Shown here one piece after another: positions 51,505-51,527 of a stretch of DNA of 64,000 bases. Numbering within the stretch: the stretch's first letter is position 1; each line of letters opens with the position of its first letter. Made by a program: the position numbers and the translations under genes. Location of the stretch: the NCBI RefSeq assembly GCF_030013205.1, contig NZ_CP122648.1, one strand, 5' to 3'. A model generated the notes under the pieces. That model ran no database searches. It saw nothing but the letters and a program-made list of their open reading frames with translations, and had not been told where the DNA came from. This stretch comes from Escherichia coli (lineage in GTDB: Bacteria; Pseudomonadota; Gammaproteobacteria; Enterobacterales; Enterobacteriaceae).

Positions 51505-51527
51505 ACTTTAGTTACAACATCCTTATT
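51505..51527 (-). other. TerB: Ter site (TerB) immediately upstream of tus
   Basis: Minus strand reads AATAAGGATGTTGTAACTAAAGT; GTTGTAAC core conserved; position ~10 bp upstream of tus start as expected for TerB. Confidence 0.8.

Follow-up and report, generated by a model that had tools for sequence, protein, structure and literature searches.

The best described counterpart of the locus studied here is TerB of Escherichia coli K-12, the Tus operator and replication terminator lying upstream of tus. In the Ter numbering, which includes A(4), A(5) and G(6), the base C(6) flips into a pocket of Tus and thereby locks the complex (PMC4499146; PMC8707476), and the G.C(6) base pair is required for the Tus-Ter lock (PMC4499146, PMC8707476). 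In vivo, Tus occupies the six high-affinity sites TerA to TerE and TerG, of which TerC is the most used (PMC8707476). As for TerB itself, it is located in the tus promoter and Tus autoregulates through it, as reported in PMC8347550 and PMC8707476, both citing Roecklein 1991; a 10-bp region separating tus and TerB is also mentioned in PMC8707476. The ter sites have been compared across phylogroups by Goodall et al. 2021 (PMC8347550, section 3.2 and Fig. 3 legend), in which position 7 is variable and the conserved ter core is defined as position 6 plus positions 8-18. According to the same paper, position 7 has no base-specific contact with Tus and a change there is tolerated, and its summary of Coskun-Ari & Hill 1997 gives little effect for a position-7 substitution. 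In PMC4499146, no statements were found on base 7 in the locked complex. A G at position 7 (hereafter G7) is therefore, in kind, already known as a common and tolerated polymorphism.

The TerB site and its setting

In the window, that is, the whole 64-kb stretch of E. coli DNA analysed here, the minus strand from 51527 to 51505 reads AATAAGGATGTTGTAACTAAAGT directly upstream of tus, exactly as an earlier note on this DNA had given it. The site and its neighbours are listed below.

51505..51527, minus strand: TerB, predicted 23-bp Tus-binding replication terminator, with the sequence given above, 22/23 identical to K-12 TerB
51522, minus strand: G6 of Ter, intact; its plus-strand complement is C(6)
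51521, minus strand: Ter position 7, G here versus T in K-12, the sole difference within the 23-mer
51495..51504, minus strand: spacer of 10 nt, GGTTAATATT, from TerB to the tus start codon, identical to K-12
50565..51494, minus strand: tus, for the replication terminus site-binding protein (309 aa; 97% identity to K-12 Tus)
51570..52871, minus strand: rstB, sensor kinase, upstream neighbour of TerB, to which the non-permissive (G.C6) face of TerB is directed

Allowing up to 3 mismatches, the K-12 TerB 23-mer has a single match in the 64 kb, with 1 mismatch and a chance expectation of 0.01; the bare GTTGTAAC octamer occurs 3 times, which is not above chance. The matched site is set in the rstB-tus intergenic region, upstream of tus and 10 nt from its ATG (51494), in agreement with the claim of the earlier note that it lies directly upstream of the gene. 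This is also the placement in K-12, with which synteny is confirmed: the order rstB-TerB-tus-fumC, the orientation of TerB relative to rstB and tus and the 10-nt spacing to the ATG are all the same, and the whole window is collinear with K-12 1,671,753-1,735,239. The G.C(6) base pair is present, as a minus-strand G at 51522 and a plus-strand C, and with G6 and positions 8-23 equal to K-12 TerB the whole core that defines a Ter site (position 6 and positions 8-18) is retained. The C6 had been described earlier as an intact part of the GTTGTAAC core; it is indeed intact, but it does not belong to that core, since C(6) pairs with the G6 of AATAAG. As to the orientation, the non-permissive face looks toward the inner terminus on the TerC/dif side, TerC and dif themselves being outside the window, and the plus strand of the window has a positive GC skew, which fits a permissive TerB face toward tus with forks entering from the tus side; TerB would thus let pass the fork by which this region is usually copied.

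On the whole, the site is very probably the normal TerB terminator of the E. coli chromosome, carrying the G allele of a common and long-standing G/T polymorphism at position 7, with a predicted function no different from that of the T allele in K-12. By analogy with the K-12 literature, Tus would bind the 23-bp TerB, and a fork that has run past TerC would arrive from the rstB side and unwind positions 1-6. The C(6) that pairs with G6 at 51522 would then flip into the Tus pocket and lock the complex; forks from the tus side would pass. Bound Tus would also occlude the overlapping tus promoter and so repress its own gene. Given that position 7 is unread by Tus, the G allele would be expected to act like the T allele of K-12. 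In this scheme binding, locking and autorepression are taken over from K-12 work; the present analysis itself shows how the site is built, how frequent its two alleles are, and that the remaining bases and the Tus residues are conserved.

The difference from K-12 at position 7

In K-12 MG1655, the orthologous site is likewise located between rstB and tus (4227-4249 of our locus L001). Its sequence is AATAAGTATGTTGTAACTAAAGT, and the reference with T7 was thus given correctly in the earlier note. K-12 TerB starts with AATAAGTATG, and alignment of the two sites gives 22/23 identical positions, including G6 and positions 8-23, with T versus G at position 7. The single-base difference claimed before is thus confirmed as real. 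Outside position 7, the 75-bp intergenic region has 3 more SNPs relative to K-12 (window 51567, 51556 and 51540), and from the -10-like element described below through the tus ATG the window is the same as K-12 save position 7. The changed base had been regarded as a flanking one; in fact it is the immediate inner neighbour of the lock base pair G.C(6), though unread by Tus.

Allele frequency and haplotypes in E. coli

The frequencies of the two alleles were obtained with two 46-mers differing at position 7 alone, in which position 7 falls inside each 28-base megablast seed word, so that only genomes with the queried allele can match. Among the 5,426 complete E. coli genomes searched, the G query has matches in 2,781 genomes (795 exact) and the T query in 2,631 (2,329 exact). 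Together these make 5,412 of the 5,423 genomes with the locus, which shows that the design separates the alleles, and all five of the G-match loci fetched read G at position 7. G7 is therefore present in about 51% of complete E. coli genomes, a frequency that, like that of T, rests on a non-random genome sample. The carriers include CFT073, Nissle 1917, ATCC 25922, UTI89, ABU 83972 and O157:H7. The comparison with reference E. coli proposed in the earlier note consequently has two outcomes, T in K-12 and G in CFT073, UTI89, O157:H7 and others, and the idea of a notable departure from the reference is not supported. K-12 TerB is one of two common E. coli alleles, and G7 is not unusual. This means that K-12 TerB should not be considered as "the" E. 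coli TerB, which is relevant whenever K-12 serves as the Ter-site reference.

In the alignment of six fetched loci, four TerB haplotypes are found: AATAAGG (the window, CFT073, UTI89 and H105), AATAAGT (K-12), ATTAAGG (O157:H7 and PRO_A-1551) and ACTTAGG (F2_81). Variation within TerB is restricted to positions 2, 4 and 7 in these loci, with G6 and positions 8-23 invariant. In CFT073, UTI89, H105, Nissle 1917 and ATCC 25922 the 23-mer is identical to that of the window, G7 included, and these five strains differ from the window only in flanking intergenic SNPs and in the tus allele; for example, CFT073 is 96.8% identical over a 401-bp tus-rstB stretch. The same stretch is 100% identical in 18 genomes only, which are pig ETEC / O139:H1, and has 90-95% identity to about 5,060 other genomes. 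A sequencing or assembly error in the window, for which nothing speaks beyond the single-base difference from K-12, would have to have produced the same base that 2,781 independent complete genomes carry and that recurs in 18 identical 401-bp stretches; this explanation has a vanishingly small probability and is rejected. In addition, the tus/TerB region has no match in 3 of the 5,426 complete genomes, and one record of the collection that carries it is labelled plasmid.

G7 in other Ter sites and other species

The G allele is also seen at other Ter sites of the E. coli chromosome. TerC of K-12, read from the genome, is ATATAGGATGTTGTAACTAATAT, beginning ATATAGGATG, and so has G7; terG, given as GTCAAGGATG... 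in the supplementary material to Goodall et al. (PMC8347550), has G7 as well. TerC and TerG (GTCAAGGATGTTGTAACTAACCA) are high-affinity, lock-forming sites in which G7 stands beside G.C(6) and the core 8-19 is shared with the window TerB; unlike TerB, they are located elsewhere on the chromosome without overlap with the tus promoter, and they differ from it in the outer positions 1-5 and 20-23. At the TerA position of E. coli E69, between lapB and pyrF (L017 4676-4695), the site is AATAAGGATGTTGTAACTAAAGT, the same 23-mer as the window TerB; positions 4 and 7 distinguish it from K-12 TerA. The TerB of E69 itself gave no match to the scan pattern described below. As TerC and TerG of K-12 and TerA of E69 show, G7 is a normal state of functional Ter sites.

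For other species, one genome per species was scanned with AAGKATGTTGTAACTAAAGT, and the matches were then checked for a tus homolog as the next feature downstream; the pattern recovers only sites otherwise identical at positions 4 to 23. Among Escherichia, TerB-tus is found with G7 in E. whittamii and Escherichia sp. E1V33, and with T7 in E. albertii and Escherichia sp. MOD1-EC7003. The more distant genera having both the TerB-tus adjacency and a pattern match carry T at position 7. As an indication of the ancestral allele this outgroup scan is mixed, the Escherichia species being split into 2 G and 2 T. In many Enterobacteriaceae, a Ter match that is not adjacent to tus is directly followed by a short GC-rich segment and then by a T-run/A-run, for example GCGGGCTTTTTTAAAAA; loci with this context are L004, L006, L012, L015, L021, L033, L038-L040 and others. 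The segment resembles a bidirectional terminator, and may represent a conserved TerA-type context.

The tus promoter and possible effects of G7

The statement in the earlier note that TerB overlaps the tus promoter and that Tus autoregulates through it is found for K-12 in PMC8347550 and PMC8707476. In the window, two candidate promoter elements were located by eye.

51527..51535, minus strand: TGcTATAAA, extended -10-like, putative tus promoter element; its last base is Ter position 1
51550-51555, minus strand: TGGTCA, putative -35-like hexamer, 17 nt upstream of TGcTATAAA

A consensus sigma-70 promoter scan of 51400-51700 found no site, because TATAAA is without the T at hexamer position 6 required by the tool. 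With the -10-like hexamer ending at Ter position 1, the transcription start would be expected at Ter positions 7-9, which puts the SNP at about -1/+1; counted from the -10-like element, position 7 is about 6-7 nt further downstream and close to the start expected from this geometry. No tus transcription-start data were found in the literature searched. A hairpin with a 6-bp stem (minus strand GGTGGT-CAAGTC-ACCACC, window 51540-51557) is also present just behind the stop codon of rstB and covers the -35-like region of tus. Relative to K-12, whose stem is 4-bp, the SNPs 51556 A to G and 51540 G to C gain one base pair each, and the 6-bp version is common to CFT073, UTI89 and O157:H7.

It is of interest to discuss whether G7 could be a functional regulatory variant that alters Tus affinity, the lock kinetics or base -1/+1 at the tus promoter and thereby makes Tus levels or the efficiency of arrest at TerB measurably different between G and T lineages. 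Position 7 does adjoin G.C(6), the tus start expected from geometry would fall at Ter positions 7-9, and the G7 allele has about 1.1 kcal/mol of extra nearest-neighbour stacking over steps 5-8, which stabilizes the local duplex; moreover, both alleles have intermediate frequencies and are found across several Escherichia species. However, the published summaries give no base-specific contact at position 7 and little effect of substitution there, G7 is natural in the high-affinity TerC and TerG, and, with a non-random genome sample, recurrent neutral mutation accounts for the allele pattern equally well. We consider a functional role of this kind improbable, and the shift in Tus affinity and tus autorepression raised in the earlier note has the literature against it, position 7 being tolerant and TerC and TerG having G7. 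From its position, and from the added stacking next to the lock base, G7 could conceivably have a small quantitative effect on how tus is autoregulated or on the start of its transcription, although none of this is evidence for one. If G7 did alter tus autoregulation, it would represent a lineage-specific tuning of the replication fork trap. It seems very unlikely that the position-7 G/T, about 50:50 in sequenced E. coli, would be a maintained functional polymorphism tuning Tus levels or TerB back-up arrest by lineage; what has been published on the contacts, and the occurrence of G7 in TerC and TerG, argue against such tuning.

The Tus protein and the tus gene

The window encodes a cognate Tus, whose start is placed at ATGGCGCGT by the K-12 annotation and the alignment; the GTG start at 51506 in a mechanical list of open reading frames is an artefact. 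Compared with K-12, the protein has 9 substitutions, namely I23A, H27E, V35I, H116R, K119Q, A188T, A221T, N225D and G270S. The residues E49, I79, F140, H144, G149 and R198, together with the other contact residues checked, are unchanged. Taking E49, I79, F140, H144, G149 and others as the lock and DNA-contact residues, the cytosine pocket and the DNA contacts are intact. A functional role of R198 is supported by PMC8707476. The 9 changes of the window lineage compare with just 1-3 Tus amino-acid changes per strain in Goodall et al. (PMC8347550).

At the nucleotide level, tus is the most diverged full-length gene of the window relative to K-12, with 5.48% versus a median of 1.59%, and malY is second with 3.41%; the median is over the 55 genes lying within the window, the row for asr being a spurious 16-nt match to a gene outside it. 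The window tus allele is also rare, with at least 99% identity in 20, 95-99% in 1,194 and 90-95% in 4,209 of 5,423 genomes; full identity of the gene, like that of the tus-rstB stretch, is confined to pig ETEC / O139:H1.

The divergence of tus raises the alternative that G7 has co-evolved with the Tus of the window lineage as a compensatory change between operator and repressor, for which tus being the most diverged gene, with 9 amino-acid changes versus K-12, could be cited. The evidence is nevertheless against it. G7 is common to CFT073, UTI89 and O157:H7, whose tus 5' regions differ from that of the window, and the fetched examples already suggest no association of the position-7 allele with the Tus allele. 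Besides, of the 48 codons that differ, 39 do so synonymously, and none of the 9 non-synonymous ones falls on a residue known for the lock or for DNA contact. Such co-evolution is thus highly improbable.

An import of the divergent window tus from another Escherichia species is rejected for the species sampled, to which the window allele is no closer than that of K-12: identity to E. albertii is 86.9% for the window and 86.8% for K-12, and identity to E. whittamii is 89.3% and 89.0%, respectively. The K-12 tus (L001 4260-5189) is 95.7% identical to that of Escherichia sp. E1V33 (L032) and 94.5% identical to that of the window, and in the adjacent rstB E1V33 is only about 89% identical to either E. 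coli. These identities suggest that the tus alleles are old or that tus has been exchanged between species.

Other differences from K-12 in the window

Besides the tus region, a few further differences from K-12 are observed. An IS1 insertion of about 770 bp is present between ydgJ and blr (window about 30700-31468), where K-12 bases 1,704,456-1,704,464 are duplicated on both sides as a 9-bp target duplication; the insertion and its flanks have a 100% match in the pig strain ETEC4079. In rsxC (window about 26160-26580), overlapping and staggered alignments to K-12 1,708,574-1,709,095 indicate an internal tandem repeat whose copy number differs from K-12. In the ydgA-uidC intergenic region (window 44352-44382), about 30 bp stand in place of about 150 bp of K-12 (1,691,401-1,691,552), and what K-12 has there, probably a REP-type element, is missing from the window.
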